Shown here in pieces: positions 4,984 through 45,565 of a DNA stretch of 64,000 bases. How positions within the stretch are numbered: position 1 is the stretch's first letter; each line of letters begins with the position of its first letter. The notes beneath the pieces were generated by a model. The model was not told the DNA's origin. It searched no databases and saw nothing but the letters and a program-made list of their open reading frames with translations. Made by a program: the position numbers and the translations under genes. Location of the stretch: positions 211,605 through 275,604 of the forward strand of contig CAVQBK010000003.1 of NCBI GenBank assembly GCA_963710755.1. The letters are read 5' to 3'. This DNA is from an uncultured bacterium (lineage in GTDB: Bacteria > Oederibacteriota > JAAXVQ01 > JAUVAV01).

Positions 4984-5129
4984 GCTCCACCTTTTTAGAA
5001 TCCTTACTGTTTAAATGCCGTGTCTCCGGGATCTATGTTTTTGGCAAAGATCGTATTCTTTACCTCCGACCCTTCTGGAGCTAAGGGTTCGAATTTTTCA
5101 GCCCTTACAATTAAACAAGATCTCCAAAT

Positions 5130-8781: not shown

Positions 8782-8915
8782 GATGCTCCTCGTCCGTCAT
8801 TCAACTACCCCGCGCTTGACATGATTTGGAATAATCTATCCTTCCATGTCACAGCGTTAGCGCGGGGATGGTTGGATATGATATGAAATAGATCATTATT
8901 TCTATTCGCTTCATC

Positions 8916-8935
8916 CCCGCCTTATAAGGCGGGGA
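8916..8935 (-). terminator. Perfect 20-bp palindrome CCCCGCCTTATAAGGCGGGG immediately 3' of the tape-measure-like gene (candidate intra-operon attenuator)
   Basis: Seen directly. Not followed by a clean U-run on the minus strand, so at best a partial terminator or RNA-processing site. A second inverted repeat CCCCGCGC...GCGCGGGG lies at 8807-8865. Confidence 0.25.
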
Positions 8936-8940
8936 ATTCG

Positions 8941-24252: not shown

Positions 24253-24564
24253 ATGCCTACTAAGTCTAAAGAATCAAACATCATTCAAAAGAGCATGGGC
24301 CATGTCATTCGGACATTGCGTTTCAAGCTGAATCTTACCCAAAGTCAGCTGGCCGAAAAAGCCGGCCTGGACCGCACCTATATTGGGGATATTGAAATCG
24401 GCGGCCGCAATATCGCCCTGCGCACTTTCTTTCGCCTAGCTGCAGCCCTTGAGGTGTCGCCGGACAAGTTCATGAAATTATTGACCAAACAACTGGAAGC
24501 GGATCATAAGGGATTTGATTGGAAGAAACTCATGGAAAAAGATAAGTGGGTGGAGAGAGGGTAA
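24253..24564 (+). CDS. XRE-family (Cro/C1-type HTH) transcriptional regulator, copy 1
   Basis: 103 aa. HTH core LTQSQLAEKAGLDRTYIGDIEIG. C-terminal ~35-aa extension ends KDKWVERG, shared with copy 2 and with the fragment at 26571-26710. Confidence 0.7.
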   Translation: MPTKSKESNIIQKSMGHVIRTLRFKLNLTQSQLAEKAGLDRTYIGDIEIGGRNIALRTFFRLAAALEVSPDKFMKLLTKQLEADHKGFDWKKLMEKDKWVERG

Positions 24565-24643
24565 AGGTAGGTATCAAAATAACAGCATGTATTTCCCCTC
24601 GCCCCGTGCCAGCGGGGAGAGGTTGGGTGAGGGGCCCAGTATA
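24565..24643. repeat. Conserved 3' tail of the XRE gene with a G/C-rich imperfect hairpin (CCCCTCGCCCCG-TGCCAGC-GGGGAGAGG...GGTGAGGGG); also at 28549-28628
   Basis: Near-identical between the two XRE copies although the XRE coding regions have diverged. Confidence 0.5.
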
Positions 24644-24733
24644 CTCCTCCCCCAAAAAAGTCGAATCTCGGGTGGATGCCGTCCCTGGGCAGGAGGGGCA
24701 ATTAAGTTGTTATGTTGTTAACGTCCCGTTGAC
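24644..24733. repeat. R2 repeat (copy 2), ending ATTAAGTTGTTATGTTGTTAACGTCCCGTTGAC (MITE-like terminus)
   Basis: Aligns with 22936-23026. The last ~35 bp match the right end of the MITE family. Confidence 0.55.
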
Positions 24734-24772
24734 CCGTATTTCCGGCGCATTTTTTAAAGAAAGGGGCAAACC

Positions 24773-26269
24773 ATGAAAAAGTTAACTTATAGCCTGCTCT
24801 TATGTGGGCTTATATTGGATGGTTCCGTTCACGCTGAACTCGTCGAAAGAGGAACGCTCTCCGGCATCGTAACCACCTTTGACTCGGACAACGCAGGCGT
24901 TCTGTACCGAAACAGTGCCTCTGAGTATTGGCACCTAACTCGAGGCGGCGACGCCAAAAAACTTATCGCCAATTCACATTCTGAACGTGTGACATCGGTG
25001 TCACCTCAGCGCACTTACGCCCTTCTCCGCGGAATGGAAGGCATTCACATTGTGAAACTCAAAACCGGAGAAAAAATCCCCATAAAATTTAAGTTGAATT
25101 TTTCTCATCATGCTACCTGGCTTTTGGATGAAAGTAAATTCGCCTTTGTATCACGAAACAAGAAAGAAAGTGAACGCCCGGTTCTTTCTAATTTTACTGA
25201 AAATCTCTATCTTTTTAATGTTATTGAGTATGTCAAGGATTACAAGAATCGGTCACTCGCGGATATCGGTAATTATACAACAAAACTTACAACGTATACC
25301 AAAGGCTTTTGGATAGACAATCTCGCCTGGGCTACCGATCAGAAGAGACTTGCCTTTGGAACCTACCATCCGGAGAAAGTGAACAATCAATCTAAGTATT
25401 TTCATACGATAGAAGTTGTTGATATCTCCAGTGAAATGATTTCTACTGTAGCCAAGATGCCCAGCGATGGAATCTATTGGACCGGAAAGGATTCGCTGGC
25501 GTTTTTCGGCTATACCAAAGCAGGTGGTTGGACGCTCTACGCCAAAGAAGGCCAAGGGCCTGTAAAGCAACTCGTTCAGGGACGACCACACCATTGGGCT
25601 TTTTCCGAACAAGAGCGGAGTTATTTATACGACATGCCGCCTCACTCATCAAATCCGGGAAACGAACACTTTTGGAAGAATTTGGATAATAAAAGCATGA
25701 CCAGGATAGTAGGTGCTCTAAGGAATCCGATGTTATCCAAGGACGGAAAGTGGCTCTCATTCCAAGTCCCTGATACACTGGACAAAGCCATGGCCATCTT
25801 GGTTGAAACAAAACTCATCTCAGAGCGTGCCGTTAATGGGACAGTCAAGGTTGAGGACCTCATCCAAATACGTATGGGAGAAAGGCCATCAGTTTATGAC
25901 GTGAAGTCGTCACCCCTCCCTCAGCCATCGGTCACTTTTCGTTTGAATGATGTACAGGCCAATCAGGAATTCATCTCGTATGAGCTACATCTAAAGAATG
26001 AATTCAATGACAGGTACTTGCGTTTTAAATTTGTAAACCAACAGCAGATTGCCGGCAAAATTACAGACGCAACTGGCAATGAAGTCCTATCATGGCCGAG
26101 GATCGTTCAACCTGCCGTTTCAGCTTTCCTCGTGGGGCCGCATGAAACCAAGGTGTTCAGCGGACGTACCTCTTCCTCGTTGAAACCGGGTCAGACCTAT
26201 ACCGTCGCCTTTGAACTGATAGGATACCAAAACATTCCGACAGTCCAAACACAATTTACAGTCGACTAG
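24773..26269 (+). CDS. Secreted hypothetical protein (signal peptide; 498 aa), lower-GC
   Basis: N-terminal MKKLTYSLLLCGLILDGSVHA signal. No recognisable catalytic motif. Composition differs from the core genome. Confidence 0.5.
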   Translation: MKKLTYSLLLCGLILDGSVHAELVERGTLSGIVTTFDSDNAGVLYRNSASEYWHLTRGGDAKKLIANSHSERVTSVSPQRTYALLRGMEGIHIVKLKTGEKIPIKFKLNFSHHATWLLDESKFAFVSRNKKESERPVLSNFTENLYLFNVIEYVKDYKNRSLADIGNYTTKLTTYTKGFWIDNLAWATDQKRLAFGTYHPEKVNNQSKYFHTIEVVDISSEMISTVAKMPSDGIYWTGKDSLAFFGYTKAGGWTLYAKEGQGPVKQLVQGRPHHWAFSEQERSYLYDMPPHSSNPGNEHFWKNLDNKSMTRIVGALRNPMLSKDGKWLSFQVPDTLDKAMAILVETKLISERAVNGTVKVEDLIQIRMGERPSVYDVKSSPLPQPSVTFRLNDVQANQEFISYELHLKNEFNDRYLRFKFVNQQQIAGKITDATGNEVLSWPRIVQPAVSAFLVGPHETKVFSGRTSSSLKPGQTYTVAFELIGYQNIPTVQTQFTVD

Positions 26270-26350: not shown

Positions 26351-26569
26351 GTTCTAGGGGACGTTAACAACATAACAACTTAATAGACAGTTCCAAATAA
26401 ATGCAGTTATAATTACACCATGCCACGACAAAAACGACTGAATTTACCAGGGTAACAGACATTTAAGTGAGCGCCAAAGAACAAGCGGTATCGAAATGGT
26501 TCGAAAAAGGAAGGGAGATTTGTGAACGAAAAAATATAAAGTTGTTAAGTTGTTAACGTCCCGTAGAAC
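26351..26569. mobile_element. MITE-like non-autonomous element, copy A (~219 bp, 21-bp TIRs GTTCTAGGGGACGTTAACAAC / GTTGTTAACGTCCCGTAGAAC)
   Basis: Near-identical copies at 37354-37572 and 38987-39204 in the opposite orientation. Terminal inverted repeats seen directly. No coding capacity. Confidence 0.7.
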
Positions 26570-26734: not shown

Positions 26735-27637
26735 TCAAACAAAATATCCGTCTTTCTTTAAAAACCGCTCATGTTTTTTCCTGTTACAATAAGGTGCATA
26801 AATTATTCCATCCCACTTCCATATTTTTTGATCATTAAATATAATGTCTATATTCATAGTTGTGTTTAATATTTTCTCCCACAGGTTTTTATAGGGATTA
26901 ATGCACAACGAAGATTGAAAGCAATCTTTTGCAGTACAAGTATTGTTAGCCGTATATTCATCAAAAGACTTCGAAACGATCCCCCCGATTATATCTATTA
27001 TTTTGATCGCTCTAGCTTCATCTGAATATTTTTCTGATTTTTTGGGAATAAAATAAGGGCCGCCCAGTATTACTTTTTTTTCTCGCGCCAAATCATGAAT
27101 CTGTACCTTGATTTTATCCTGATACTTACGGTCATTAATATCAATGAACCAATCCACTTTGGGGTTATTGAACAAATATGATCCTGGCTGATGGAAATTA
27201 AGTTTTTTTACAAAAGGAAATATTCTTTTAAATCCATATAAATAACCATTTTGTGCATGCCCGGCTATTATTGCTTTGTCTGTCAATTTTTGTCCGCATT
27301 CTACTTCTGATTTATTTAGAATATAAAAACCTAGAAGGCAAATATAGTCTCTGTTATTTCCCGATAAAAGCTCCGTAACAAAACCCTCAAGGGCACAAGG
27401 ATCGTCTTTAGCGACTTTCTTTAACTCAGACCATTTTCGCAAACGGGATTTAAGATATTTTCTTGAGCAGGAGCGGGCGATTTCAATGAATTTCTTCATC
27501 GATTCTTCGCCGGGAAAGCACGCCATTGAAATGATGTAATTTCTTGTGGCTCCAGAATAGGTTGTTCCCAAACATCCTGATTCATCGGAGATAACGATGA
27601 GTCGCAACTTTTTACCCCAAAAAAATAGCCCCGTCAT
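26735..27637 (-). CDS. DUF3800-family protein (AT-rich, 300 aa)
   Basis: N-terminal LRLIVISDESGCLG fits the DUF3800 hhYhDESG start. Strongly AT-rich compared with surrounding DNA. Confidence 0.45.
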   Translation of the reverse strand: MTGLFFWGKKLRLIVISDESGCLGTTYSGATRNYIISMACFPGEESMKKFIEIARSCSRKYLKSRLRKWSELKKVAKDDPCALEGFVTELLSGNNRDYICLLGFYILNKSEVECGQKLTDKAIIAGHAQNGYLYGFKRIFPFVKKLNFHQPGSYLFNNPKVDWFIDINDRKYQDKIKVQIHDLAREKKVILGGPYFIPKKSEKYSDEARAIKIIDIIGGIVSKSFDEYTANNTCTAKDCFQSSLCINPYKNLWEKILNTTMNIDIIFNDQKIWKWDGIIYAPYCNRKKHERFLKKDGYFV

Positions 27638-27827
27638 ACCCTCTCAAAGAGAGGTGAGTTCTCGACAAGGGCGAGAACCGACGGGGCTAATATAGGACAC
27701 CAATAATTTCTAAATAGAGTATATCTCAGCTTTTTATTGCCTACAAGTATAATTTTAAAGTTTTTATGATCCCCTTAAATTATCGGCATAATATTGCTGA
27801 TCCTAAATTTAATATGCCTATTCCCTT

Positions 27828-28115
27828 TTATCTTGTCCCGTTTTTTAATCTCTTCACTTCTTCCACCACCGCCATCTCTATGACCGCCCGCAAGCTCCAC
27901 ACAATCTCATTGACCATGGTTAGATCCATCTTCTCCGGGCAGGCCGCCACGGGCTTGGCCTCCATCATACATGTGTACTCTCCGGCCCAATGAAAGATAG
28001 GAATCTCCTTGAGCAGGATACGGTTGTCAATGGTCACCCGGGCTATGCCGATAATAGCGGATAAGTTCGAAGTGCTGGGGTAGATGGTGATGGAGAGATT
28101 GGGGGAGTGGGGCAT
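27828..28115 (-). CDS. Small conserved hypothetical protein (copy 2; paralog of 23847-24164)
   Basis: 95 aa. Nucleotide identity to copy 1 runs from ~27826 through the start codon (6 substitutions). Confidence 0.5.
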   Translation of the reverse strand: MPHSPNLSITIYPSTSNLSAIIGIARVTIDNRILLKEIPIFHWAGEYTCMMEAKPVAACPEKMDLTMVNEIVWSLRAVIEMAVVEEVKRLKNGTR

Positions 28116-28236
28116 AAAAATCTTCCTTTTGTTACTAATTTGCTACCAAGAGTATATCCAATTCATAAAAGGAGATCAAGCCAATTGTACATAACTTGCC
28201 ATTTACTTATTTTCTACAAACCTCTAATGTTGCCCT

Positions 28237-28548
28237 ATGCCTTCAAAATCTAAAGAGAAAAATATAATCCAAGTTACCTTAGGTCATATTATAAGGGACT
28301 TACGCTACAAGCTTCACCTTACTCAAGAACAGTTGGCCGAACGGGCTAGTGTAAACCGTTCCTATATTGCTGATCTTGAATTAGGCGGACGCAACATGGC
28401 CTTTCGCAATATTCTACGGCTATCCGTCGCCCTGGAAATCACGCCAGATAAATTATTCAAATTGCTTCTCAAACGACTTGAAACAGATCAAAAAGGATTT
28501 GATTTGAAGAAGTTTATGGAAAAAGATAAGTGGGTGGAGAGAGGGTAA
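28237..28548 (+). CDS. XRE-family HTH transcriptional regulator, copy 2 (diverged)
   Basis: 103 aa, ~60% identical to copy 1 over the HTH but with an identical last 11 codons and identical downstream tail. Confidence 0.7.
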   Translation: MPSKSKEKNIIQVTLGHIIRDLRYKLHLTQEQLAERASVNRSYIADLELGGRNMAFRNILRLSVALEITPDKLFKLLLKRLETDQKGFDLKKFMEKDKWVERG

Positions 28549-29028: not shown

Positions 29029-32000
29029 TTAGGAGGCCAACCGAACTTCGCGAAATGCCTCGCTAAGCTGAAGCGCTGCACTTCGCCTGTCGCCCATGTC
29101 GACTAGAATGTCGAGAATCCGCAGGAACTTCTGAGCAAGAGCCATTTTCATGGGCGTATCACGATGTGCGAAGTACTGAACAAGCTCCGCAATACGTGCC
29201 GGAATGAACGTTCCATGCCAACCCTTTAGGTTGTCGGGTCCGTTATTAATAATCGAGAGCACTTGGTCCGCGAAGGCTTCTGTTGGATAGTTTGCCCTTG
29301 CTCGTTCACAGAGCGTCAAAAATGGGGCCATCACAGAAGCGGCCCATCCGCTGGCGCGAACGAATCGATTGATCAGGGGTAGGATACGGTCAATTTCTGA
29401 CCAGTCACCATTGACGTAGCGAGCAGCTAAGTCCGCGCCTTCGACGGAGACAAACATTAAAGTGCGAACAAGATCAGGCTGATCGAAACCTGTGAGTTCA
29501 CCACTCCGGTAAGTGTCGCGTTTGAAAACGGAATCCTGTAAAAGACGTTCAAGACACAGGTTCAGCATCACGATTGCATCGGCTGGAACGACCGGCGCAT
29601 CGTACACATAGGCGCAGACATAAGTACTCGCGAAGGGGGAAAGGAGAGCCCAGCAATTGTCGCCTTTGAGGTTCAGAATCGGGTCGAGGAAGCGGGTTTG
29701 AAAGTCGGCAAGCGGGATAAAACCAGCCACCTGGCCCAGCCGCGATCCAAGCGTATGCGTCCACTCGAAAATCTGGGTTGATGATTTATTTCGGCGTCCA
29801 GGCTTCACCCATGCTGGCTCATTCTTTTGATTGGTCCAGTCGAGAACACCAGCGAGGAAATCGAGAAGTGAGTTCATTGCGCTACTTTGCAGAACCTTAT
29901 CAAAGGGGATGTGCTTAAGAATTTTTGCTGCCTGCTTGGAATGCCAAATAACGTTTGGTTCACCCCATGCCTCAGCTGCGTCGGTAGCATCATCAGCATC
30001 GATATCTTCATAGCTTTGATGCCCACGTCGGCTCTTTCCTTGTTCGACTTTCACCCAGGCTGGAGGCGGTAACGGAAGGGAAGCCCATCCGCTTCCATTC
30101 TCGTAGAACTCAAGCGCCGCATCGATCGCCGCTTGCGCTTCACTCATCGAATGGAGTGCTTCATTGTGTTGACGGGCCTGGCTGCGCGGCCGTAGTGGGA
30201 CGTGACAGAGCGAAAATGCTAAGACCAGCGCCGCCCAAGTCAATCTGGGATCCTTGGACCAAAGCTTACACGATTCTTCAAGCGCGGCTAATGAAACAAT
30301 CTCCAATGGGTGCGCAATCAGCCCAAGAAGGTCGCGAATCGCACCGCGTTCCGCTGTACTTTCGCGGATATCCGCTGCGATGCCGCGCGCCACGTAGATC
30401 GCCTGATGCCATGGGATAATGGAACTGGGAGACTGCATCAAATCGGGCTTTTCTGGCAGAAGGATAGCACGTTTTAATACATCACGAGCCCACTTGAGAT
30501 CTTCTTGACTACACCCTTTTCGAAATGTGAGCGCGATGGCAGCGGTGGCGGCAACTGCACCTCGACGTATACCCAACTGCACTTCTTCGTTCTCATCTTT
30601 CGGTTGTTTGAATAAATCGTTGGCGTCAGCTTCTCTGGCCATTGCAATGGCATCTTGAATATCGTAACTGTCGTTGAGTCCCTTCTTTTCAAATGACTTG
30701 CACGCCCACGTCCACAAGCTGGTCAGATTAAGATATTTAGTTGCCTCTTCGACCCTGGCGATATTTTCAGGTTCAGCATCGGAAGGACTAACGTGGACAA
30801 TTGTTAGCTGGTCTGAATCCTTTTCCGTGCGGTAGGCCTGATAGTTGTGCGGGTCTGTAAACTCGGCATATTTAATGGCTTGTTCCATGAGGTGTTTCCT
30901 TACCTCTGGAATATTGCGCTGCTCCTCGTACTGAAAAGGCAAATTATTCTTGAAATCGAGAATCGCATTGCGGGTTTGGTTACGGATCGGTCCTGTCGCA
31001 AAAACAAACATAGGCACCATCCAACTAAGCTGCTTTTTGCGAACCGGCCTGGCATTTGCTGCTTGGATCGCATCAACGTGAGGTTTATCGGTGCGAGATG
31101 TAAAACCTATTAGATTAGTAGTCGGAGCAATATCTTGCTCCCATCGATGTTGGTCGGCAGCTAGCAAACGTTGTGAGATGAAGAGTGGCAATGTCGTTTC
31201 GGACACAGTTTCGGTATTGAGCGCAAGCATTGCCGCAATGCCTAGGATGGCGATGCATTCGTTTCCCTCTATGATTTGCTGGATTATCTCATCAACGGGC
31301 CGACCACGCTCAAGCTCGGTGAAGCACCATTCTTCGAGTGCCATAAACCCGCAGCCGATGGCATTGGGCGCCCATGTAGAACGAAACCAAAGATACTCCC
31401 GGTCAGTACCCCAGAATTTCTGGGTACCCCAGGGAAACCTCAGTTCAAGCGGTATAGGTGTGCCGGGGGGATTTTCATGATATCGTGAATAACAATGTAG
31501 TTGTCGCCACGCGGTCATCGCGTGATTGCATAGTTCCCGAAGGAGTCTCAAAGCCTCGGCGGGTGAAAACTTAAAAAGTGAGTAAAAGGGCTCTCGAAGC
31601 GGTGAAGGAGGCAAGAAACTTTGATGGTCATCGTGGATCGATAGCCTTTCACAGTCGTGGAAACTAAAATCACCTATGGCTCGCAGAGAATGTCCGAACG
31701 AAAGTGACATTTGTTCTTGGCGCGTGCGCTCAGCTTTCGGCTTGGCAAGGACTGTTTTGCGCCACTCGGCCGCACGATGAAGTTCCTGTCTTTCGCGGGC
31801 GACTTGCTCGTCTGGTAGTTCCTCTCGCAGGAACGCCAATGAAAGTTCGACGACCGACTGAGGGAGTGATTGGGCGAGGACAGGTGAGTAGACGATGATG
31901 TCGTGAAAAGCGTCGTCACGGATACGCTCTGAGTTGGCCACCCGCTGCAAGTAGTCGGCGGCAAAGATCGGCTCAGATCTCGACGATTTTAAGAGGAGTT

Positions 32001-34365
32001 GAGAGAGGGATTTTTGAAAGCCACCGGGGTCGGGCATGGTGGCGAGCCAGGTGGCGCATTGCTGCAGCAGAGCGCGAGACGTTGGATTGGGCAAATCTGC
32101 AAGTGCATTTTGCCAGACCTCGAAGATAGCGACGATCTCCGGATAGAGCCTCTGCGGTATATCCGAAATGCGTCTGAGGATAAAGTTGATGAGGCGACGC
32201 CACGCGGCGAAGTCGGAAGGCCAACCGAGAAGATCAGCGAATCGTTGGCGTTGATCCGGTGGAAGCGCACCAGCGAGGATGTTCGCATTCGGAGTGGTCT
32301 TTTCAGCTTGAAACCAGACAAGCACCTTTCTGAAAAGCCGGAAGTCGTCGGCAAAGATGGCCGTCGCAAACTGGTCCTCATCAGCTTCGAACTTCGCAGT
32401 TCCGAGGGGACCGACTAGCCAAGCACGCAGCCATTGTGATCTAAGGTCCGAACCCTCGGTTTTGGCGAGGTAGGCGCACCATTCTTTTCCCTGTGTGTAC
32501 TCCCATTGGGAAGAGAGTTCGACGACGCGCGCGACCGCTGGCGGCTCCCCGGAAGCCTTAATCTCTTCCATCCATTGGGCCCCGCGATCAGCCAAGACAT
32601 AGAAAAAGGCCCATTCGAAGAAGATATCGTGGGCGAAGCGGACGGATATCCCTTCACGAGCATTTTGGAGTATGCCATCTGATCTTAGGTCATCGATGTG
32701 TGCGACTGAAGTGAGCTGGCTAAGGCAAATCGGCTGGCTAAGATTGCGAGCACGAACAGAAGCTAAATTGAGCAGCGCTCGCTGGCGTTCAATTGCGTCT
32801 TGTCCATTCTCATTATAACCGCCCCGCTGCCACCAATTCTCGATCAAATCTACTTCAGATTGAGGAGCGAATGTCGGGGCGCCGGGGTCGGCTACGTAAC
32901 TTTGGTTTAGCACTTTCGCAAAAAAGGGTCGTCGGACAATCTCTTTCACCTGGGGTAATCCAAACAGAAGTGGTCTCAGGTGTGGTTTGGCTTTTGCGAG
33001 TAGCTCAGCCTCTTCGTCGCTCAGCTGATCAACGCTAAGCGTCTCGACATTCAGGACATCAAGGAACTCGCCTAACCAATTGCGAAGAACTTCAATACCG
33101 GTGTTGCGAAGGGAGACGACGGTTCGCCAGTTGTCAAGCAGCGGTGACTCCACAATGGTGCGGATTACGTCGAGAATGATGGGCTGATGCTCCTTCTCAA
33201 TACGATCGATTGCATCGATGAACAAAATGGAAGTGCCAGATGCTCCGATCTCAACGAGAAGTTGCTCCAAGGGAGCACCAGAGAGACCCTGCGAAGTCGC
33301 ATAACTGATCCAACTGGTGCCTTCGAGCTGTTCGGCTTTGAGGAAGAAAACTGGCCCGCGTACTAGCGCGCGCTCTACCGCTCGCCTCACTACGACTGAT
33401 TTGCCACTTCCCGGCAGGCCGCGAACCTGGACAACACGGGCTGTAGTTAGCTTGGCGTCCAGGTCTCCTAGGAGCGAGGCTCGGTCGAGCTTTGATCCGC
33501 CAACATCGTCAGGAATGAGGTTTGTGTAACTCTTTGTGAGTTCCGTTAATCTGTCGAGATCAAGACGCAAGGAGGTCGCGCCGCGAAAGCGTACCACAGG
33601 GGAGATCATGCGCACAAGCCGCGCGCGGTCAAACTGGCCCGATTTGCCTGCTGAAGCGCGGGCTAACTGAACGATCTTTGACCAAACGAAGGGTGCCTTG
33701 GCTGCGTCATCGGGCACGAGGCAATCTCCGATGCGATTAATTGCATCCGGGGGATCAGTGGCGCCTTCACGAAGGAAATCGAATTGGATCAGAACGAAGT
33801 GCGCAAGGAACCGATGCACTTCTTCATTTGTGCACGGCGCCCCCTTTGCATCTTCCATCAGAGCAACTACGTTGTTCTTGACTGTTTTGAGCTCAGCACT
33901 AGCGCCGCCATCCTTCGCAAAGCGAGCGTTAAAATGATCCGCGGTCAGACTTTCACGGGCCCAATCGCAAAGGGTTTTAAGCGCTCGTTCTTTGGCGGGG
34001 GTAACCGTGCCAACTGCTGACCCGTAGCGGTCGACGTTGATGCGGAAGTCAGCTTTTTTGAGGGTAGCCCAACTGTTGCGGATAATGTCGCGAAAGTCGG
34101 TGTTAGTTTCCGCCTTGCTTATTGTGAGCGAACGCTTCACCTGGAGGCTAAGGCGAGCGGGTTTCTTTGCTGCATCTTCAAAATCAACAATCACATCATC
34201 GAGCGGTTCGCCGAAGTCGCGCTGTTGAACCGACACGCGAACAACGGTTCGATCATCAATGCCGGGTGCATATGCTTCGGCTAGAAGCGCGGTGAGATAG
34301 AACGCGGCCGCGTCACCCTCAAAGGTAAAACCTTCACCGCCGGCGAGTTCAGTTGATTGTGGCAT
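29029..34365 (-). CDS. Giant STAND-type P-loop NTPase with N-terminal Cap4-like (DUF4297) nuclease-like domain and ~1350-aa helical C-terminal region; putative Avs/bNACHT-like antiviral sensor-effector (1778 aa)
   Basis: N-terminus GGEGFTFEGDAAAFYLTALL...DDVIVDFED...LSLQVKRS fits the DUF4297 GGxGFxFQ start plus a D...(D/E)xK-like core. Walker A VRGLPGSGKSVV at aa ~306-313 and Walker B ILFIDAIDRIE at aa ~369-379. The long C-terminal region has no other catalytic motif. Confidence 0.6.
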   Translation of the reverse strand: MPQSTELAGGEGFTFEGDAAAFYLTALLAEAYAPGIDDRTVVRVSVQQRDFGEPLDDVIVDFEDAAKKPARLSLQVKRSLTISKAETNTDFRDIIRNSWATLKKADFRINVDRYGSAVGTVTPAKERALKTLCDWARESLTADHFNARFAKDGGASAELKTVKNNVVALMEDAKGAPCTNEEVHRFLAHFVLIQFDFLREGATDPPDAINRIGDCLVPDDAAKAPFVWSKIVQLARASAGKSGQFDRARLVRMISPVVRFRGATSLRLDLDRLTELTKSYTNLIPDDVGGSKLDRASLLGDLDAKLTTARVVQVRGLPGSGKSVVVRRAVERALVRGPVFFLKAEQLEGTSWISYATSQGLSGAPLEQLLVEIGASGTSILFIDAIDRIEKEHQPIILDVIRTIVESPLLDNWRTVVSLRNTGIEVLRNWLGEFLDVLNVETLSVDQLSDEEAELLAKAKPHLRPLLFGLPQVKEIVRRPFFAKVLNQSYVADPGAPTFAPQSEVDLIENWWQRGGYNENGQDAIERQRALLNLASVRARNLSQPICLSQLTSVAHIDDLRSDGILQNAREGISVRFAHDIFFEWAFFYVLADRGAQWMEEIKASGEPPAVARVVELSSQWEYTQGKEWCAYLAKTEGSDLRSQWLRAWLVGPLGTAKFEADEDQFATAIFADDFRLFRKVLVWFQAEKTTPNANILAGALPPDQRQRFADLLGWPSDFAAWRRLINFILRRISDIPQRLYPEIVAIFEVWQNALADLPNPTSRALLQQCATWLATMPDPGGFQKSLSQLLLKSSRSEPIFAADYLQRVANSERIRDDAFHDIIVYSPVLAQSLPQSVVELSLAFLREELPDEQVARERQELHRAAEWRKTVLAKPKAERTRQEQMSLSFGHSLRAIGDFSFHDCERLSIHDDHQSFLPPSPLREPFYSLFKFSPAEALRLLRELCNHAMTAWRQLHCYSRYHENPPGTPIPLELRFPWGTQKFWGTDREYLWFRSTWAPNAIGCGFMALEEWCFTELERGRPVDEIIQQIIEGNECIAILGIAAMLALNTETVSETTLPLFISQRLLAADQHRWEQDIAPTTNLIGFTSRTDKPHVDAIQAANARPVRKKQLSWMVPMFVFATGPIRNQTRNAILDFKNNLPFQYEEQRNIPEVRKHLMEQAIKYAEFTDPHNYQAYRTEKDSDQLTIVHVSPSDAEPENIARVEEATKYLNLTSLWTWACKSFEKKGLNDSYDIQDAIAMAREADANDLFKQPKDENEEVQLGIRRGAVAATAAIALTFRKGCSQEDLKWARDVLKRAILLPEKPDLMQSPSSIIPWHQAIYVARGIAADIRESTAERGAIRDLLGLIAHPLEIVSLAALEESCKLWSKDPRLTWAALVLAFSLCHVPLRPRSQARQHNEALHSMSEAQAAIDAALEFYENGSGWASLPLPPPAWVKVEQGKSRRGHQSYEDIDADDATDAAEAWGEPNVIWHSKQAAKILKHIPFDKVLQSSAMNSLLDFLAGVLDWTNQKNEPAWVKPGRRNKSSTQIFEWTHTLGSRLGQVAGFIPLADFQTRFLDPILNLKGDNCWALLSPFASTYVCAYVYDAPVVPADAIVMLNLCLERLLQDSVFKRDTYRSGELTGFDQPDLVRTLMFVSVEGADLAARYVNGDWSEIDRILPLINRFVRASGWAASVMAPFLTLCERARANYPTEAFADQVLSIINNGPDNLKGWHGTFIPARIAELVQYFAHRDTPMKMALAQKFLRILDILVDMGDRRSAALQLSEAFREVRLAS

Positions 34366-34980: not shown

Positions 34981-35256
34981 TTAGTGGGAAGAGATGAAAC
35001 CAGGGCGTCGGCGCGGCAGTGTGGAATTCCGGTGCCAGCCGCCATCGCCTTTGGTTGGTCGCAGAAGTAAATGCACATGATTGCTCATCAGCGCCCAGCC
35101 ATAGCACTGGCAAGTGGTTTTTTCTAGAGCAAATGATAATCGTTCCAGAAATTCTCGTCGATCACGATCATCTTTGAATAGTGCCATCCCATTTAAACCG
35201 CGCGTGATGATGTGATAGATTGCACCTGGTATGCTTAATCGTTTTTGTCTGGCCAT
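34981..35256 (-). pseudogene. Truncated/frameshifted IS200-like Y1 transposase (RAYT-like; HuH motif HVHLLL present)
   Basis: MARQKRLSIPGAIYHIITRG...WALMSNHVHLLLRP, then the frame degenerates. A continuation ORF lies in another frame (34782-35078). Confidence 0.55.
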
Positions 35257-37353: not shown

Positions 37354-37572
37354 GTTCTACGGGACGTTAACAACTTAACAACTTTATATTTTTTCGTTCA
37401 CAAATCTCCCTTCCTTTTTCGAACCATTTCGATACCGCTTGTTCTTTGGCGCTCACTTAAATGTCTGTCACCCTGGTAAATTCAGTCGTTTTTGTCGTGG
37501 CATGGTGTAATTATAACTGCATTTATTTGGAACTGTCTATTAAGTTGTTATGTTGTTAACGTCCCCTAGAAC
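37354..37572. mobile_element. MITE-like element, copy B (inverted relative to copy A)
   Basis: Reverse complement of copy A with TIRs GTTCTACGGGACGTTAACAAC / GTTGTTAACGTCCCCTAGAAC. Confidence 0.7.
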
Positions 37573-37726: not shown

Positions 37727-38092
37727 TTAACTCTGAAAATAATGTTTATATTTTTTCGGCAACGCTTTTGATTTCGCGCCACCTTTTTTAATCTTTGAAA
37801 CTAATTTTTCAGAGGCATCTGGTTTCCTAATATGGCTTTTATTTGCTGACCAAGCTAAAATATCAGATAGTAATTCTTCTTTTACTCGAATATAATTCAC
37901 AAAGGATTTCTTTTTTACAAACGGATGTTCACCCGGTTCAATTATACAAGAACGGTCACATGGCCTATCTTCGCGTACTGTCGAAAGACTCACAAGTAAA
38001 CAATGTGTCTCGTTATTACAAACAACGAAAAACAGATGATGGGAAGAAGGACTGTCAGTAGGGATTAAAAAAGCAGCACCAATTAATGACAT
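37727..38092 (-). CDS. Hypothetical protein, candidate toxin partner of the Panacea-domain antitoxin (121 aa)
   Basis: Overlaps the upstream Panacea gene by 10 nt in an AT-rich context. Ends Lys-rich. No family recognised. Confidence 0.35.
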   Translation of the reverse strand: MSLIGAAFLIPTDSPSSHHLFFVVCNNETHCLLVSLSTVREDRPCDRSCIIEPGEHPFVKKKSFVNYIRVKEELLSDILAWSANKSHIRKPDASEKLVSKIKKGGAKSKALPKKYKHYFQS

Positions 38093-38640
38093 TCCAAAAA
38101 TTGCTTTGCTTTATTAAAGCGGTGAATGTCCTTTTCAATTTCTTTTATAACTTGTGTGGATTTCCCAACGGCTCTAAAAATATCTTCGATTTCAATGGGT
38201 TTTGATGAACCTTCGGGGTCTTGCCACTCTTTTAAATACCTATGACAGTATTTTTCAATTTGCCACTGATTAAAATGCCTAAACTTGTGTGAAACTTTTT
38301 CTATTAGCTCTATCTCTCTTTCGCTTAACTCTCCATCCTCACATTCATTATGAGCGGAAACGTTATAATTATTCCGCACTATATGTTTATGCCAATAGGA
38401 GTCTTCCCCTGGTTTTGGTTTATAATTAATAGTATCCAATATTTCACTTACAACTGGACCATGAGGCAATGAAAAATACCTGTCACAAGTAATAGGTGCT
38501 TCCCATTTTTTCAAAGCTTCCCTGTCTGCAATATATAGAAGCTTGATTAGCTTCATATAGTTAATACGCCCACCTTCTTTTTTAATAAAATGGCAGGCTG
38601 CTTGTGTTGCTTTTTTAATATCAAACTCGAATTGGATCAT
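38083..38640 (-). CDS. Panacea-domain (DUF4065, SocA-like) putative antitoxin
   Basis: N-terminal MKLIKLLYIADREALKKWEAPITCDRYFSLPHGPVVSEI matches the Panacea core (KLxKLLYxADRE...GxPxxx..Y.A...GPV). Confidence 0.6.
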   Translation of the reverse strand: MIQFEFDIKKATQAACHFIKKEGGRINYMKLIKLLYIADREALKKWEAPITCDRYFSLPHGPVVSEILDTINYKPKPGEDSYWHKHIVRNNYNVSAHNECEDGELSEREIELIEKVSHKFRHFNQWQIEKYCHRYLKEWQDPEGSSKPIEIEDIFRAVGKSTQVIKEIEKDIHRFNKAKQFLECH

Positions 38641-38986
38641 TTTAACCGCCCCTTATTTACCCGAATTCGGCCCAATTTCTAGTGAATTCGCCTACACTTT
38701 CATAATAGTTTCGTCTCAATAGTTGATATTGTTTAGACCCTGATTTGACTTTAAATACCGCTTAAGCGGTATTTAACTATATAGAAGTATAGCATACGCC
38801 CCGATATAAACACAACATATTGTCCAGCTCACCCAAGTTGCCTAAAGCCATTTGTCGTATCCAACCAGTATTAAACCCTTATAAATCAACGGTTTTCCCT
38901 CATCCAGAGTGCGCCTTCTCGACGCTATCCATCATGTCATCCTTTTTTGAATTCTCGCCCCTGAAGGTTCTGCACTGTAATGTTGG

Positions 38987-39204
38987 TTCTAGGGGACGTT
39001 AACAACTTAACAACTTTATATTTTTCCGTTCACAAATCTCCCTTCCTTTTTCGAACCATTTCGATACCGCTTGTTCTTTGGCGCTCACTTAAATGTCTGT
39101 CACCCTGGTAAATTCAGTCGTTTTTGTCGTGGCATGGCGTAATTATAACTGCATTTATTTGGAACTGTCTATTAAGTTGTTATGTTGTTAACGTCCCCTA
39201 GAAC
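38987..39204. mobile_element. MITE-like element, copy C (same orientation as copy B)
   Basis: Near-identical to copy B. TIRs GTTCTAGGGGACGTTAACAAC / GTTGTTAACGTCCCCTAGAAC. Confidence 0.7.
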
Positions 39205-39285
39205 ACAGACCCGGGTATCCGGGACGAGCCTAACTGATTAACTTAAGCTTCTTGTTCCCCACTATTTCCACGCCCTCGCCGGCTC

Positions 39286-39687: not shown

Positions 39688-41058
39688 TTACCGATCCCCC
39701 TGGACCGCCTCTTCATTCAGCAGGCCTTCAATATTCTCAACAACTAAAAAATTCAGCTCTTTGCCTCGTTTACGCTCCTCTAAAAACCCTTTCTTGGCCA
39801 GATCCAACAAATCCGACCGGGCCGTGCCCCAGGAGATGGCATTTGAATTTTGATAGTTTTTAATGGTATAGGCAAAGTCCTTATGGTTGATGGCATGATT
39901 TAACAGATCGATCTGCCGATAGTTTAAATCCTCTCTTCTTTTTATCCTGGTTCTGAGCCGATGATAGTTAACCACTTTCTTTTCAACATAGGCTTCCAGC
40001 GCTTCGATACTTTTTCGAATAATACTTAGATGATAATAAATAAAATAATTTAAATCTCCGCCGTCGCATTCGGTATTTAAATAAGCCCTTTTATATTGGC
40101 CTTTGGATTGATTGATCATTTCCGAAATGGAAACATATTCAAATAATTTATACTGCTTGCTAATCAGGTACCAATAAAACAATCCCCGGGCCGTCCGGCC
40201 GTTGCCGTCGGTAAAGGGATGGATATAACCGATCATAAAGTGGAGGATAATGGCTTTTATAACCGGGTGAACGAACTCCTGGTCGTCATTGGCAAAGTCA
40301 CATAAGGCCTGGATTCTCTGCTCCACTTCTGCATAAGGGGGCGGTATAAACAAGACTTCCTGGTCCGCATCATGTACATTAACCTGTTCTTTTCTAAAAG
40401 AACCTTCTTCCTCAGGATTTTCCAACAACCCGGCAGTTAAATCTTGATGTATTTTTTTAATTAATTCCGGGGAGAGCTTTTGGGTTTTATACTGCTTGGT
40501 TATTTTAATAATCGCACTATAGTTATTGATGATCATTTTTTCATCCTGCGTTTTTGGTTTCTTGCCGGCCTTGATCATTTCCTTGGCTTGTTTGCGCGTG
40601 GTGGCCGCGCCTTCTATTTGGGATGAAGTGATGGCTTCTTCCATCAACGCGTGTATGATTCTTTGTTTCAGCCATTCTTCCTTGTGGTCTTCTTCGCCGG
40701 CATTTTGAAAAACCATATTATCCGAAAGATGGATATCGACATAGTGGATCTCTTTTAAGATGCTGTTGGTTAATTTATAGGAAAAGGGGCTATTTTTAAT
40801 ATCCACCAAGCCCTTGGTTTCCAGACTCTGCGAACGTAAAAAAATTTTCATATAAAGCCATAAGGTTAAATGATCATAACTGCTTTCCGGTAAGGGACTA
40901 TTAGAGAACTTGTTCCAGGTCCAGTACTCTTCATAGGCTTGATTAAGAAAAATGCTTAGTTCTTTTTTCGCGTGAAGCTGTTTATGAATCGTCAATAACG
41001 TCATCATTAAATCATCATTGAGCTTTTCCACTATATTGGGAAAGTATGGTTTTTGCAC
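39688..41058 (-). CDS. Fic-family protein (class II, with inhibitory SxxxEG helix), 456 aa
   Basis: Fic motif HPFTDGNGRTAR. Inhibitory motif SSQIEG lies N-terminal to the core. GTG start. AT-rich. Confidence 0.8.
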   Translation of the reverse strand: MQKPYFPNIVEKLNDDLMMTLLTIHKQLHAKKELSIFLNQAYEEYWTWNKFSNSPLPESSYDHLTLWLYMKIFLRSQSLETKGLVDIKNSPFSYKLTNSILKEIHYVDIHLSDNMVFQNAGEEDHKEEWLKQRIIHALMEEAITSSQIEGAATTRKQAKEMIKAGKKPKTQDEKMIINNYSAIIKITKQYKTQKLSPELIKKIHQDLTAGLLENPEEEGSFRKEQVNVHDADQEVLFIPPPYAEVEQRIQALCDFANDDQEFVHPVIKAIILHFMIGYIHPFTDGNGRTARGLFYWYLISKQYKLFEYVSISEMINQSKGQYKRAYLNTECDGGDLNYFIYYHLSIIRKSIEALEAYVEKKVVNYHRLRTRIKRREDLNYRQIDLLNHAINHKDFAYTIKNYQNSNAISWGTARSDLLDLAKKGFLEERKRGKELNFLVVENIEGLLNEEAVQGDR

Positions 41059-41396
41059 TTTAATGCACCTTTTTCTATCAATTTATAAATTTTTAATACT
41101 TGTTAACACTATATCAACAAAATCTATCAATTTAAATAAAATTAATACTTTGTTATATTTAACTATTAATATTTATTAGTTTTTAAATTTTTGATACTTT
41201 GCTTGATGAATTTAGGATTAATTAAATTAAAAGACATTTTCATTTAATTAATTTTGGTTAAGTAAAAGAAGGCTTAATTATTAAGACGCTAATTAAAGGA
41301 ATCTCAGTGGATAGCACCAAAATTACCGCATATATTTTTATCCGGTCGAAAAATCGGTGGCTGGCGCCAAAACCCCGACTCTATGATTGGCCGTCC

Positions 41397-42554
41397 TCAC
41401 TCTACGCCTTCATTCAACAGCCCTATATACGCACTGTAGGCATATATCCTACCCCGCTGTTTACCGCTGATTTCTTTGACGATCCCCAAACGCTCAAGCT
41501 GATTAAAGGCCGACACAATGGTGGGGGTGGTCAGGCCTGTCAGCTTTTTCATTTTTTTAATCGATAAAATGAGATGTTGCTCCATTTCACGGTGGAGGCG
41601 GAGGGCCGTGGTGGCACCTCTGCCGGTCTGCTGCAGGGCTTGCCGGTCTTGATTAACCAAAGCCATTAGTCTCTTGGCTGTATCCACGGCATTGCCCGCT
41701 GTTTCAATGAGGCCATCGGCAAAGAAGTCGAGCCAACTTTCCCAGTCTCCTTCAAGGCGCACCTGCTCCAGCAACTTGTAATACATCTCTTTATGTTTTT
41801 TAAAGTAAAGACTCATATACAGCATGGGCTGGGATAGTATTTTTTCTGTATATAATAATAATGTAATCAGCAACCTGCCGATACGGCCGTTGCCATCCAA
41901 AAAGGGATGGATCGTTTCAAACTGCACATGGGCCAGCGCCACTTTGATTAAAGCCGGTGTTCTGGTTTCCGCATTATGCAGGTACTTTTCAAAAGCATCA
42001 AGACACTCCATTAATAATTCCGGCGGTGGGGGCACAAAGCCGGCATTGCCCGGTCTGGTGCCGCCCACCCAATTTTGACTTTTTCTGAATTCTCCGGGAT
42101 TTTTACCGGCCCCCCTTCCCTGGGATAACAGCACTTGGTGTATTTCCCGGATAAGACGCAATGACAGAGGAAACCCTTCTTCCATCCGTTTTAACCCATG
42201 ATTGAGTGCAGCGACATATTGAGAAACTTCCTCCACATCATCGATTGGTACCCCGGGCATGGCTTCCGATTCATAAATGAGCAAATCTGAAAGGGACGAT
42301 TGCGTGCCTTCGATCCTGGAGGACATCACCGCCTCTTTACGGATATAAGCATATATAAAATAGGTAATATCGGGCAACAAGATCGCCGCACTGTCGAGCC
42401 GTCCTAAGCTGATTAAAGCCTGATCCAGTTTCAGACGTAAACCATCGTCAATAGCCAATTTCTTAAAATCCGGTATGGGATAGGGGACAAAGGCCTTGAC
42501 CTGTTCATCATAAACAGTTGTTGTAATATATCGTCCTGTTACCTCTTTAGTCAT
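41397..42554 (-). CDS. Fic-family protein (class II), 385 aa
   Basis: Fic motif HPFLDGNGRIGR and inhibitory motif SSRIEG. Confidence 0.8.
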   Translation of the reverse strand: MTKEVTGRYITTTVYDEQVKAFVPYPIPDFKKLAIDDGLRLKLDQALISLGRLDSAAILLPDITYFIYAYIRKEAVMSSRIEGTQSSLSDLLIYESEAMPGVPIDDVEEVSQYVAALNHGLKRMEEGFPLSLRLIREIHQVLLSQGRGAGKNPGEFRKSQNWVGGTRPGNAGFVPPPPELLMECLDAFEKYLHNAETRTPALIKVALAHVQFETIHPFLDGNGRIGRLLITLLLYTEKILSQPMLYMSLYFKKHKEMYYKLLEQVRLEGDWESWLDFFADGLIETAGNAVDTAKRLMALVNQDRQALQQTGRGATTALRLHREMEQHLILSIKKMKKLTGLTTPTIVSAFNQLERLGIVKEISGKQRGRIYAYSAYIGLLNEGVE

Positions 42555-42736
42555 GACATCCTCTTAATTAAAGTATATCGGATTTAGATTTAATTAAATT
42601 TATTTTAGTAAAAGAAAGCTTATTTGGCAACTTATTAATTAAAGTATAACTGTTTTTCTTTTAATTAATAGAAAATAACGCTGGAGACGCCATATTTATT
42701 TGCCATGACTGTTCTAGTCAATAGGGTCGGGAAATT

Positions 42737-42973
42737 GGTGGCTGTTACCGGTTGCGCCTATAATTTTCCACGCTGCGGTCATAGGTCTTTTCCGCTTTGG
42801 CGTCAAAATAACAAGCCGGCAATTCGCCCCTCTTGCGGTGATAGTGAAGGCATTCACAGCAGAGGCCCTTGCGGGAACAGGGGTAGGAACAATTGCAGTC
42901 GTTTCTATTATGCTCTTGTTTGCATTCCACCGGCTGATCTCCCCTACAAAAATCTTTCTTCCATTCCGGCGTT
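42737..42973. repeat. 237-bp direct repeat, copy 1 (second copy at 45329-45565; 1 mismatch)
   Basis: Seen directly. Contains the Cys-rich mini-ORF on the minus strand. Confidence 0.8.
42745..42930 (-). CDS. Cys-rich small protein (N-terminally truncated copy; [21 protein letters not shown])
   Basis: 61 aa from a GTG start. Identical to the C-terminal 61 aa of 45337-45573 except R/M at one position. Confidence 0.35.
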
Positions 42974-43052
42974 TGATAACACGAATATGGATCTTATTTG
43001 ACCCTTCGAATGCCGGGAGCCTTCGCGCTTGGCATCCCTTAAAGCTGCTGCT

Positions 43053-44147
43053 TCATTTAATTTCATCTTTCACTTCCGGAACCCGTATAAATAAATTAAA
43101 CAACTTGTGATTGATATAATAAATCGAATTGCCCATCTTCTTTTTCTTTAAAAATCCACCATCTACCAATTCGTTTAAATATTTTGTGGCCGTGATCCTG
43201 GTTATGTTTAAATCCCGTTTCAGAAAATCTATTTTCGTATAGGGATGAAAAAATAAATTGTTTAAAAGATCCTGGCTATAAAAGCGGTATTTTTGGCGAA
43301 TCTCATGCTTGTAGGCCATCATTAATTCTCTGATTTTCAGGATGATGTGTATGGTTTGACGCGACGTTTGTTCAATCCCGGCAAGTATGAATAAAATCCA
43401 TTCTTCCCAAGCTTCCCGATCCCGTACGGCTTGTAAAAGACGATAATAATCATTTTTATTTTTAATAATGTATCGGCTGAGGTACAGCACCGGTATGTTT
43501 AATAACTTTTTTTGAACCAAATATAAAATATTGAGGATGCGTCCTGTCCTTCCATTGCCGTCATAAAAAGGATGGATGCTTTCAAATTGATGGTGAATCA
43601 CCGCCATCTTAATTAAAGGATCTATCGGCGAAATGTGATCATCATTGATATACTTCTCCAAGTTATTCATCAAACGCAAAATATCATCGGCATTTTGTGG
43701 TGGCGTATAGACCGTCTCACCGGTTTGATTATTTTTGAGTTCTGTTCCTGGAAGTTTTCGATATCCGGCCTTATGTTTAACCAATTCAGATTGAATTTCC
43801 AGTATAGTGTTGCTGGTCAACATGCCGCTCTTTTGCACCAACTGGAATCCTTTTTTCAATGCAATGGCATAATTTTGAACCTCTTTGGTTGCCGGACTGG
43901 TTTGCATCTCTTTAAAAAGACCAAGTTTAAACAATTCATCTTGGGTGGTAATAATATTTTCAATTGCAGAACTATCCTTAGCTTCCTGAAGGCCTAACGA
44001 ATTGATTAAAATATTTTGATTGGGTATGGTTTGCGAAATGCCTTTTAGTTCTGCTAAATATCTGTGCGCTCGGGCTGCTTTTTTTAATATCTCCTTTGAT
44101 TCAAGATCCGCTTTGGGCGGCAGATTATTTAACTGGTACATGGGCAC
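43053..44147 (-). CDS. Fic-family protein (class II), 364 aa
   Basis: Fic motif HPFYDGNGRTGR and inhibitory motif SSAIEN. Confidence 0.8.
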   Translation of the reverse strand: MPMYQLNNLPPKADLESKEILKKAARAHRYLAELKGISQTIPNQNILINSLGLQEAKDSSAIENIITTQDELFKLGLFKEMQTSPATKEVQNYAIALKKGFQLVQKSGMLTSNTILEIQSELVKHKAGYRKLPGTELKNNQTGETVYTPPQNADDILRLMNNLEKYINDDHISPIDPLIKMAVIHHQFESIHPFYDGNGRTGRILNILYLVQKKLLNIPVLYLSRYIIKNKNDYYRLLQAVRDREAWEEWILFILAGIEQTSRQTIHIILKIRELMMAYKHEIRQKYRFYSQDLLNNLFFHPYTKIDFLKRDLNITRITATKYLNELVDGGFLKKKKMGNSIYYINHKLFNLFIRVPEVKDEIK

Positions 44148-44562
44148 ATTTAACTCCTGGGCGCAGTTATGTATAAAAACATTAAAATTTTATATATTGT
44201 GCAATAAGTATGTATATTTTTAACCATTTATTATACATGCGATTGTAATTATCCTTTTTTATCAAGCATTTTATGGTACTTCATTTTTATGGTCTTATTG
44301 CCTTTTTGATCTGAATGTCAATAAAAAAGACGGTTTTTGAAATTGTAGAGGGGGTATCGGGGACGCTCTTAACTAATCCAACTTAAGCTTTTTGTTCCCC
44401 ACTATTTCCACGTCCTCGCCAATACCTTGCTGGACTGCCTCATCGCTTATCCCCAAATATTTCCCTATCCCGGTTTTAGAGTGGCTACCTGGGACGTCCT
44501 TCGATAATATGATATCCCTTGTGCAGTGCAATTTTGCAGTCGCGTGCAATAATAGCCGGCAC

Positions 44563-45199: not shown

Positions 45200-45328
45200 T
45201 TTTATTCCTTAACCAAGTGATGAATTTATGATGACAGATATTTGATGACGAGGCAATATTTTATTGTTGTCTAAGCTGTCAATAACAATAGCATGCACCG
45301 GTTGAGATCCATCGGTATGAGAAAAACC

Positions 45329-45565
45329 GGTGGCTGTTACCGGTTGCGCCTATAATTTTCCACGCTGCGGTCATAGGTCTTTTCCGCTTTGGCGTCAAAA
45401 TAACAAGCCGGCAATTCGCCCATCTTGCGGTGATAGTGAAGGCATTCACAGCAGAGGCCCTTGCGGGAACAGGGGTAGGAACAATTGCAGTCGTTTCTAT
45501 TATGCTCTTGTTTGCATTCCACCGGCTGATCTCCCCTACAAAAATCTTTCTTCCATTCCGGCGTT
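45329..45565. repeat. 237-bp direct repeat, copy 2
   Basis: One mismatch relative to 42737-42973. Confidence 0.8.

Follow-up and report, generated by a model that had tools for sequence, protein, structure and literature searches.

SoFic has been described as a standalone, single-gene anti-phage defence protein (Millman et al. 2022) and is represented by a PADLOC/DefenseFinder model. Its type protein, SO_4266 of Shewanella oneidensis (PDB 3EQX/3ZCN), AMPylates switch I of EF-Tu, is also an efficient deAMPylase and, as a dimer, binds the DNA of its own promoter at a site that is unmapped. The authors of that work suggest a dual role as a transcriptional and translational regulator and do not invoke phages; SoFic also gives protection against phage T5. 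A further homolog, EcSofic, is toxic as the wild type. Its toxicity requires dimerisation and the C-terminal domain, and is neutralised by AS1, a 47-amino-acid protein encoded downstream. CccR of Yersinia pseudotuberculosis (PDB 7XUX) is a class II Fic protein (as defined by Engel et al. 2012) with a helix-turn-helix (HTH), and acts both as a type VI secretion system (T6SS) effector with FtsZ as its target and as an auto-repressor. The CccR dimer, through its C-terminal HTH, represses its own promoter via the 10-N26-10 palindrome AGATAATCAT-N26-ATGATAATCT. Here we compare with these systems three neighbouring Fic genes, referred to as Fic1, Fic2 and Fic3, that lie in a stretch of 64,000 nucleotides (hereafter, the window) of contig CAVQBK010000003.1 from an uncultured bacterium of the Oederibacteriota. 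We consider it likely that they form a stack of three separately acquired, independent, self-repressing and auto-inhibited single-gene modules of the SoFic type.

All three genes are on the minus strand. Fic1 (39688–41058) encodes 456 amino acids, with a Fic core, a C-terminal winged helix and a family-specific N-terminal domain. Fic2 (41397–42554; 385 amino acids) is of the SoFic type, with Fic_N, Fic and a C-terminal HTH region. Fic3 (43053–44147; 364 amino acids, or 362 from the ATG two codons downstream that the gene caller took) is, of the three, the nearest to S. oneidensis SoFic. Based on Pfam, the Fic domain (PF02661) is present in each, with E-values of 5e-21 (Fic1), 1.7e-21 (Fic2) and 9e-21 (Fic3). 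The Fic motifs read from the translations, HPFTDGNGRTAR in Fic1, HPFLDGNGRIGR in Fic2 and HPFYDGNGRTGR in Fic3, all fit HPFxDGNGRxxR, and all three proteins thus carry HxFx(D/E)GNGRxxR within a Fic fold, as expected of Fic/Fido domains. N-terminal to the core, and on the same chain, each has the (S/T)xxxE(G/N) motif that distinguishes class II: SSQIEG in Fic1 (residues 145–150), SSRIEG in Fic2 and SSAIEN in Fic3.

The original prediction, which was made from the sequence alone, had called these open reading frames (ORFs) class-II-type Fic proteins with an intact catalytic motif and an inhibitory motif in cis, and this is what we find in all three. It had also named a failure of the inhibitory motifs to align structurally as one way in which it could be wrong. 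In the three-way alignment the motifs occupy common columns, with S145, S146, I148 and E149 (Fic1 numbering) invariant, and the Fic3 motif matches GSSEIEN of SoFic, which includes E73, residue for residue. Catalytic and inhibitory residues are likewise invariant within the alignments of the Fic1, Fic2 and Fic3 families. In the predicted structure of Fic1, the only one of the three that was modelled, the inhibitory motif is at the end of a helix spanning residues 123–148. By these motifs each protein is a class II Fic enzyme; it is most likely an AMP-transferase.

The PADLOC SoFic model matches Fic3 with 397 bits, Fic2 with 388 bits over its full length and Fic1 with 173 bits over model positions 55–352 of 361. 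Scores against the NCBIfam SoFic equivalog (NF046030, ProtAdlyltaseSoFic; cut-off 550 bits) are 384.8 for Fic3, 135.6 for Fic2 and 67.3 for Fic1, and on this basis the three proteins belong to the family of S. oneidensis SoFic but are not its equivalogs. The Pfam family Fic_N is above its cut-off in Fic2 (81 bits, with 77 bits for Fic) and in Fic3, and below it in Fic1 (17.9 bits vs a cut-off of 26.7). Fic3 also matches SoFic-like_C; the alignment of Fic2 with Fic3 extends to residue 361, and some homologs of Fic2 have HTH-type Pfam families on record. In the Fic1 model, residues 380–439 form a C-terminal helix–strand winged HTH that matches SoFic structures. The SoFic-type architecture (Fic_N, Fic and a SoFic-like winged helix) is therefore present, except for its N-terminal part in Fic1, where residues 1 to ~115 form a family-specific domain without a recognisable fold. 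When compared with solved structures, Fic3 aligns with SoFic over residues 16–353 (338 residues, 282 bits), including the E73 motif, whereas the best match of Fic2 is a Fic protein of Mycobacterium marinum (7cb8, 121 bits) and the best sequence match of Fic1 is a weak one to CccR (7XUX, 46 bits). The subfamily to which Fic1 belongs comprises about 1,200 clusters at 50% identity.

The likeness to SoFic thus consists of an N-terminal helix and Fic_N with SxxxE(G/N) in cis, the HPFxDGNGRxxR core, the C-terminal winged helix and the placement in a defence island. The differences are that three subfamilies are stacked at this locus, whereas the relatives are mostly solitary, and that no AS1-like partner was found here. 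With CccR, the proteins share the class II motif (SARIEG in CccR), the C-terminal HTH and the logic of a widely spaced inverted repeat at the gene's own promoter. No T6SS domains were found among the scanned ORFs of the island, and the genes are consequently not placed in a CccR-like cluster of T6SS Fic effectors. Class I FicT/FicA systems (VbhT/VbhA) also have a Fic toxin that is restrained by an inhibitory helix with SxxxE(G/N), and their setting is likewise rich in toxin–antitoxin (TA) genes, but there the helix is on a separate small antitoxin, whereas here toxin and helix form one polypeptide in all three cases, without a conserved small partner, and we do not assign the genes to class I. 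The architecture is that of an already named defence system and not of a new one. Because standard defence-annotation tools would call all three ORFs SoFic, the find is ordinary as far as the genes themselves are concerned.

What sets the locus apart is the combination of the three. Pairwise identity among the Fic proteins is 24–31%, whereas each has orthologs of 60–84% identity in metagenomes and metagenome-assembled genomes of many phyla. Those orthologs for which context was retrieved are mostly solitary, with neighbours that vary between loci. The GC contents of the genes also differ, being 40.0% for Fic1, 47.2% for Fic2 and 36.6% for Fic3, vs about 55% in the flanks; with 17–25% GC in the proximal upstream regions, the DNA is as AT-rich as had been claimed. 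Based on the low mutual identity, the closer solitary orthologs elsewhere and the differing GC, the triplet is, as judged by sequence comparison, an accumulation of three different, separately acquired SoFic subfamilies and not a set of local duplicates. The same observations rule out a recent tandem duplication, and the original description of the genes as tandem paralogs, if taken to mean a family that diversified on the spot, is not supported.

We scanned related loci for ORFs with a Fic motif. A second Fic gene was found at five independent loci, and three Fic genes only at locus L180; among the 46 family-level loci that have at least 3 kb on either side, three have a second Fic gene. The partner always comes from a different subfamily. 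Stacking of three Fic genes is uncommon, but not unique. The other clusters (L180, L171, L161, L156 and L019) resemble the present one in that a few kb hold two or three Fic genes, each from another subfamily. They differ in orientation, which is opposite in L156, L161 and L171 and mixed in L180, so that L019 alone has both genes on one strand, and in the combination of subfamilies, which is unlike the present one; the L180 contig, moreover, is plasmid- or virus-like. That contig is filed as viral, and its Fic trio (positions 5980–11241) is made up of a SoFic-type protein, a DUF4172-Fic protein and a 325-amino-acid Fic protein with HPYSDGNGR, with genes for a Rep3 initiator, a resolvase, Cas6 and WYL proteins as neighbours.

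A triplet of this kind could also be created by assembly, through a repeat that was wrongly joined or expanded or through the merging of strains into a chimera, and the original prediction had conceded that an artefact would overturn it. Fic3 and the HepT and MNT genes next to it are bracketed by a 237-nt direct repeat (42737–42973 and 45329–45565, copies 2592 nt apart), each copy of which holds a whole gene for a 61-amino-acid, Cys-rich DUF6485 protein. In an independent short-read assembly (Logan, ERR11523667), one contig (L001) carries Fic2, Fic1 and a lipoprotein gene, and another (L254) carries MNT, HepT and Fic3. By coordinate arithmetic, both contigs end ~30 nt inside repeats, namely the DUF6485 repeat and a repeat resembling a miniature inverted-repeat transposable element (MITE); L254 consists of a unique segment with 30 nt of repeat at either end. 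Because the short-read contigs end in repeats, the join of Fic2 and Fic3 across the DUF6485 repeat is seen in the long contig alone, and an identical assembly graph would be expected from one copy of the repeat together with a 2.6-kb circle, or from variation between strains. Even in that alternative topology, Fic3 would still be joined to the same DUF6485 repeat, and the two repeat copies in the long contig differ at one position. Genes of 24–31% identity cannot be collapsed or expanded repeats of one another, which disposes of that part of the concern, and the adjacency of Fic2 and Fic1 is independently reproduced. We thus regard an artefactual triplet as extremely unlikely.

The second line of evidence concerns the DNA upstream of the genes. 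Palindromes are predicted as binding sites upstream of all three genes and of their orthologs, and within each family they are conserved and have covarying arms. The original prediction had pointed to AT-rich TTAATTAAA blocks shared by the upstream regions and had suggested a motif search. The blocks are a real cis-element of the Fic1 and Fic2 upstream regions, but they are not shared by Fic3. The palindrome TTAATTAAA-N16-TTTAATTAA occurs at three sites in the 64 kb (41218–41251, 42564–42597 and 42635–42668), vs 0.03 expected, and its architecture recurs in Fic2 orthologs, with covarying arms. The latter two sites flank a sigma-70-like promoter, TTGCCA-17-TAAAAT (42630 to 42602, minus strand), and are candidate operators of Fic2. 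Based on 72 ortholog upstream regions, the Fic2-family consensus is YTTATTAAAG-N14-CTTTAATAAR; exact AAAG-N14-CTTT is present in 19 of the 72, with its centre mostly 40–65 nt before the start codon. A uniform enrichment test with 7-nt arms and one mismatch was too permissive, and was replaced by counts of exact arms for each spacer. Palindromes of the form 9-N16-9 are found in 26 of 65 Fic2-family upstream regions vs 1.3 in shuffles (27 of 65 vs 1.0 in a further count). The arms covary, as in TTATTTTAG/CTAAAATAA and TAACGAAAG/CTTTCGTTA.

The candidate operators of Fic1 have another sequence and spacing. Three palindromes of the form TATYAAW-N9-WTTRATA, at 41076–41098, 41125–41147 and 41174–41196, are arrayed in tandem at a spacing of 49 nt. 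In two Fic1 orthologs of 60% identity (L002 and L004), three sites of this kind recur at the same distances (~-40, -87 and -136), and in more remote orthologs the arms covary (TACTAAT/ATTAGTA and TACCAAT/ATTGGTA). Exact 7-N9-7 palindromes occur in half of the Fic1-family upstream regions (9 of 18, vs 0.2 in shuffles). Upstream of Fic3 there are two palindromes of a third form, ATRTATA-N15-TATACAT (44169–44197 and 44210–44238), which are 41 nt apart and overlap a weak promoter-like match (44216 to 44187). The same pair, at the same 41-nt spacing, is present at four orthologs (L171, L172, L174 and L180), with covarying arms ATGTAAA/TTTACAT. The forms 7-N9-7, 10-N14-10 and 7-N15-7 all differ from the 10-N26-10 operator of CccR.

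When folded as RNA, the palindromes reach 0 to -4.4 kcal/mol, and four of the five tested have z scores no better than -1.2 relative to shuffles; the exception is the site at 41218–41251 (z of -2.9). Because RNA folding is weak, protein-binding DNA is a better reading of the palindromes than RNA structure. The palindromes also accord with published work, in which CccR represses itself and SoFic binds its promoter.

One site is out of place. The third exact TTAATTAAA-N16-TTTAATTAA, at 41218–41251, lies between the Fic2 stop codon and the Fic1 operators, just upstream of the latter. It contains the Fic2-type palindrome TTAATTAAAT-N14-ATTTAATTAA intact, with 10-bp arms that are perfectly complementary, and no such site is present upstream of the Fic1 orthologs L002 and L004. 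These features would be expected if the genes were wired together, that is, if Fic2 bound upstream of Fic1 and controlled it, in a hierarchy or cascade rather than as three independent modules. But the site is part of an 81-nt segment (41218–41298) that is 73% identical to 42564–42644 upstream of Fic2, and this segment is a decayed, partial copy of the Fic2 promoter and operator, in which the equivalents of the Fic2 -35 and -10 read TTAATA and TTAACC; the site may thus be a relic of recombination. It is, furthermore, ~160 nt upstream of the Fic1 start, beyond the three sites of Fic1 itself. The pairing of Fic2 with Fic1 is not conserved, as what comes after the Fic2 ortholog of 80% identity at L008 is the MITE-like element and not a Fic1 gene, and Fic3 has nothing in common with the Fic1 and Fic2 sites. 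We therefore consider cross-wiring of the genes unlikely. Less likely still is its elaborated form, a two-layer cascade in which Fic2 would repress Fic1, and titration or activation of Fic2 in infection would free a second, differently targeted toxin, combined with an operator code. If true, the 7-N9-7, 10-N14-10 and 7-N15-7 palindromes would represent a code that evolves together with the winged helix and keeps SoFic paralogs residing side by side insulated from each other.

A different departure from single-gene modules would be a two-gene TA system with a small AS1-like antitoxin, for which the 47-amino-acid downstream protein that neutralises EcSofic is a precedent. The candidates here are a 40-amino-acid ORF (42944–43066), the DUF6485 gene 3' of Fic3 and a 75-amino-acid lipoprotein-like ORF 3' of Fic1. 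The 40-amino-acid ORF overlaps the Fic3 stop codon by 14 nt and is the only candidate shaped like AS1, but no similar ORF follows the Fic3 orthologs, including those of 84% and 72% identity, and it has no Pfam match; we rejected it. DUF6485 was also rejected, as its second copy does not adjoin a Fic gene and none was called near the Fic3 orthologs that were looked up. More generally, a comparison of the downstream regions of orthologs found no conserved antitoxin gene beside the Fic genes, and the genes called there vary by locus. The inhibitory motif is already in cis. A small antitoxin partner is thus very unlikely, and the earlier statement that no separate antitoxin is evident agrees with these results.

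We therefore return to the three independent, self-repressing modules as the likely arrangement. The integrity of the genes, their motifs, family and divergence, the island context and the covarying palindromes are established directly. The rest of the proposed mechanism follows published homologs, as regards DNA binding, toxicity, targets and anti-phage function. The active site of each enzyme would be blocked in cis by the N-terminal SxxxE(G/N) helix. Each protein would dimerise and, via its C-terminal winged helix, bind the widely spaced palindrome at its own promoter, which would keep expression low, as was shown experimentally for CccR. Each would also be a latent toxin, whose auto-inhibition may be relieved, for example, during phage infection. 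The relieved enzyme would then AMPylate an essential host protein (the published targets of relatives being EF-Tu for SoFic and FtsZ for CccR), and the resulting growth arrest would amount to abortive infection. With an operator sequence and spacing of its own for each subfamily, the three would act in parallel, similar to the defence systems that accumulate in islands.

Several points weigh against this interpretation. The Fic2-type site upstream of Fic1 speaks against full independence of the modules. Published anti-phage activity is limited to a few homologs of SoFic, and the NCBIfam equivalog cut-off is reached by none of the three proteins. Fic1 lacks the N-terminal dimerisation helix region of SoFic and has the domain of ~115 residues in its place, and EcSofic depends on the small antitoxin AS1, which leaves some room for an unrecognised partner here as well. 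The published binding data for S. oneidensis are a further point. Upstream of the SoFic gene there are two 7-N15-7 sites, 40 nt apart, in fragments F3/F2 of the binding assay, yet the best-bound fragment is F1, which has no 7-N15-7 site, only a half-site variant of the 7-N9-7 form, and several ATGTCGAT palindromes. In the 300-bp SoFic probe from upstream of S. oneidensis mloA, the palindromes are GTGTATA...TATACAC at -255 and TTGTATA...TATACAT at -215 (preprint 10.64898/2026.07.09.737422, Table S2), and the -215 palindrome is cut by the F3/F2 boundary. These data neither support nor overturn the predicted Fic3-type operator.

Phage defence by these three genes is suggested by analogy, from the context of a defence and TA island together with the published activity of homologs. 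Alternatively, the proteins could be self-regulating regulators of transcription and translation that reversibly AMPylate and de-AMPylate host proteins and merely reside in a mobile island. SoFic is both a deAMPylase and a DNA binder, for which its authors proposed dual regulation without phages, and the families are very widespread and often beside housekeeping genes. On the other hand, EcSofic is toxic as the wild type and SoFic gives protection against phage T5, the genes here share a stretch of foreign, low-GC DNA with Avs-like, HepT/MNT, Panacea and HicB genes, and their patchy spread over phyla at 60–84% identity points to horizontal transfer. We consider a role outside defence unlikely.

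Modest as a gene find, the locus is of value mainly for its operator predictions, its unusual stacking and the unstudied Fic1 subfamily. The comparative data give testable operator predictions for three large SoFic subfamilies, where prior experiments have shown that SoFic binds its promoter, without mapping the site, and have yielded a single footprint, that of CccR. Footprinting and work on winged-HTH specificity could build on the covarying half-sites and the fixed spacings. As a natural case of three co-resident SoFic subtypes with their own operators and one misplaced operator, the locus is also suited to asking whether co-resident paralogous defence regulators are insulated or cross-talk.

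The Fic genes are part of a low-GC island of about 23 kb (~22.8–45.7 kb), with a gene for a UbiA-family prenyltransferase on one side and a carbonic anhydrase gene on the other. Among its other products are HicB, two HTH proteins, an Avs4-like STAND NTPase (1778 amino acids), ArsR and SdpI, and it further holds a Panacea (SocA) module, HepT/MNT, the two DUF6485 genes and a fragment of an IS200-like transposase. The original prediction had placed the Fic genes in a defence and TA island, and the Avs4-like STAND, HepT/MNT, Panacea and HicB genes in low-GC DNA bear this out. Its further suggestion of a nucleotidyltransferase (NTP-transferase) relay finds no support; the adjacent MNT forms a regular TA module together with HepT. 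At two other loci (L009, positions 5001–6937, and L010), a 60%-identical Fic2 ortholog is directly followed by an MNT and HEPN pair, echoing Fic3 and HepT/MNT here; this may be no more than co-location in islands.

The Avs4-like protein (29029–34365, minus strand) has an NTPase region that resembles Avs4, well below the family cut-off, and its N-terminal 270 residues match the PADLOC model DUF626_VIII. Judging by the sequence, this is probably a STAND defence protein of the Avs kind whose effector or sensor differs. The Panacea (SocA-like) antitoxin-domain gene (38083–38640, minus strand) is overlapped by a 121-amino-acid ORF without a family match (37727–38092, minus strand) that lies downstream of it, and together they may form a TA pair whose toxin is unclassified. 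Two small HTH_3 genes (24253–24564 and 28237–28548) adjoin ORFs of 498 and 300 amino acids (within 24253–26269 and 26735–28548), for which Pfam, NCBIfam and PADLOC give no match, and the island may thus hold further, uncharacterised modules here.

No tRNA and no Rfam family was found in the window. The shared strand and the intergenic repeats raised the idea of an integron-like cassette array, which was rejected as the repeat ends, on our reading, are unlike attC R''/R' cores. Among the scanned ORFs of the island no integrase was found; the only transposase-like sequence seen is a 91-amino-acid fragment of the IS200-like Y1 transposase family (34981–35256, minus strand). The MITE-like element is 219 bp long, with 35-nt terminal inverted repeats (GTTCTAGGGGACGTTAACAAC...), and is present in three copies (26351–26569, 37354–37572 and 38986–39204). 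Two of these flank the Panacea module (37727–38640), an arrangement that resembles a composite element. Its terminal repeat is also found in an unrelated sample, at positions 1515–1554 of L008, ~90 nt 3' of the 80%-identical Fic2 ortholog.

The arrangement of the 237-nt DUF6485 repeat looks like integration by homologous recombination, or like a cassette able to loop out. A shorter sequence, CAGCCACCRRTTTYYC, is present 3' of Fic2 and of both DUF6485 copies (41348–41363, 42729–42744 and 45321–45336), and in one case is part of a terminator-like hairpin (45325–45345). The copy that follows Fic2 may be left over from the 3' end of a DUF6485 gene, in which case insertions may have recurred at this spot. 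Finally, a repeat of ~75 nt, ~85% identical between its two sites (39200–39285 and 44340–44425), is found 3' of the lipoprotein-like ORF that is itself downstream of Fic1 and 3' of HepT, one copy having a terminator-like hairpin.

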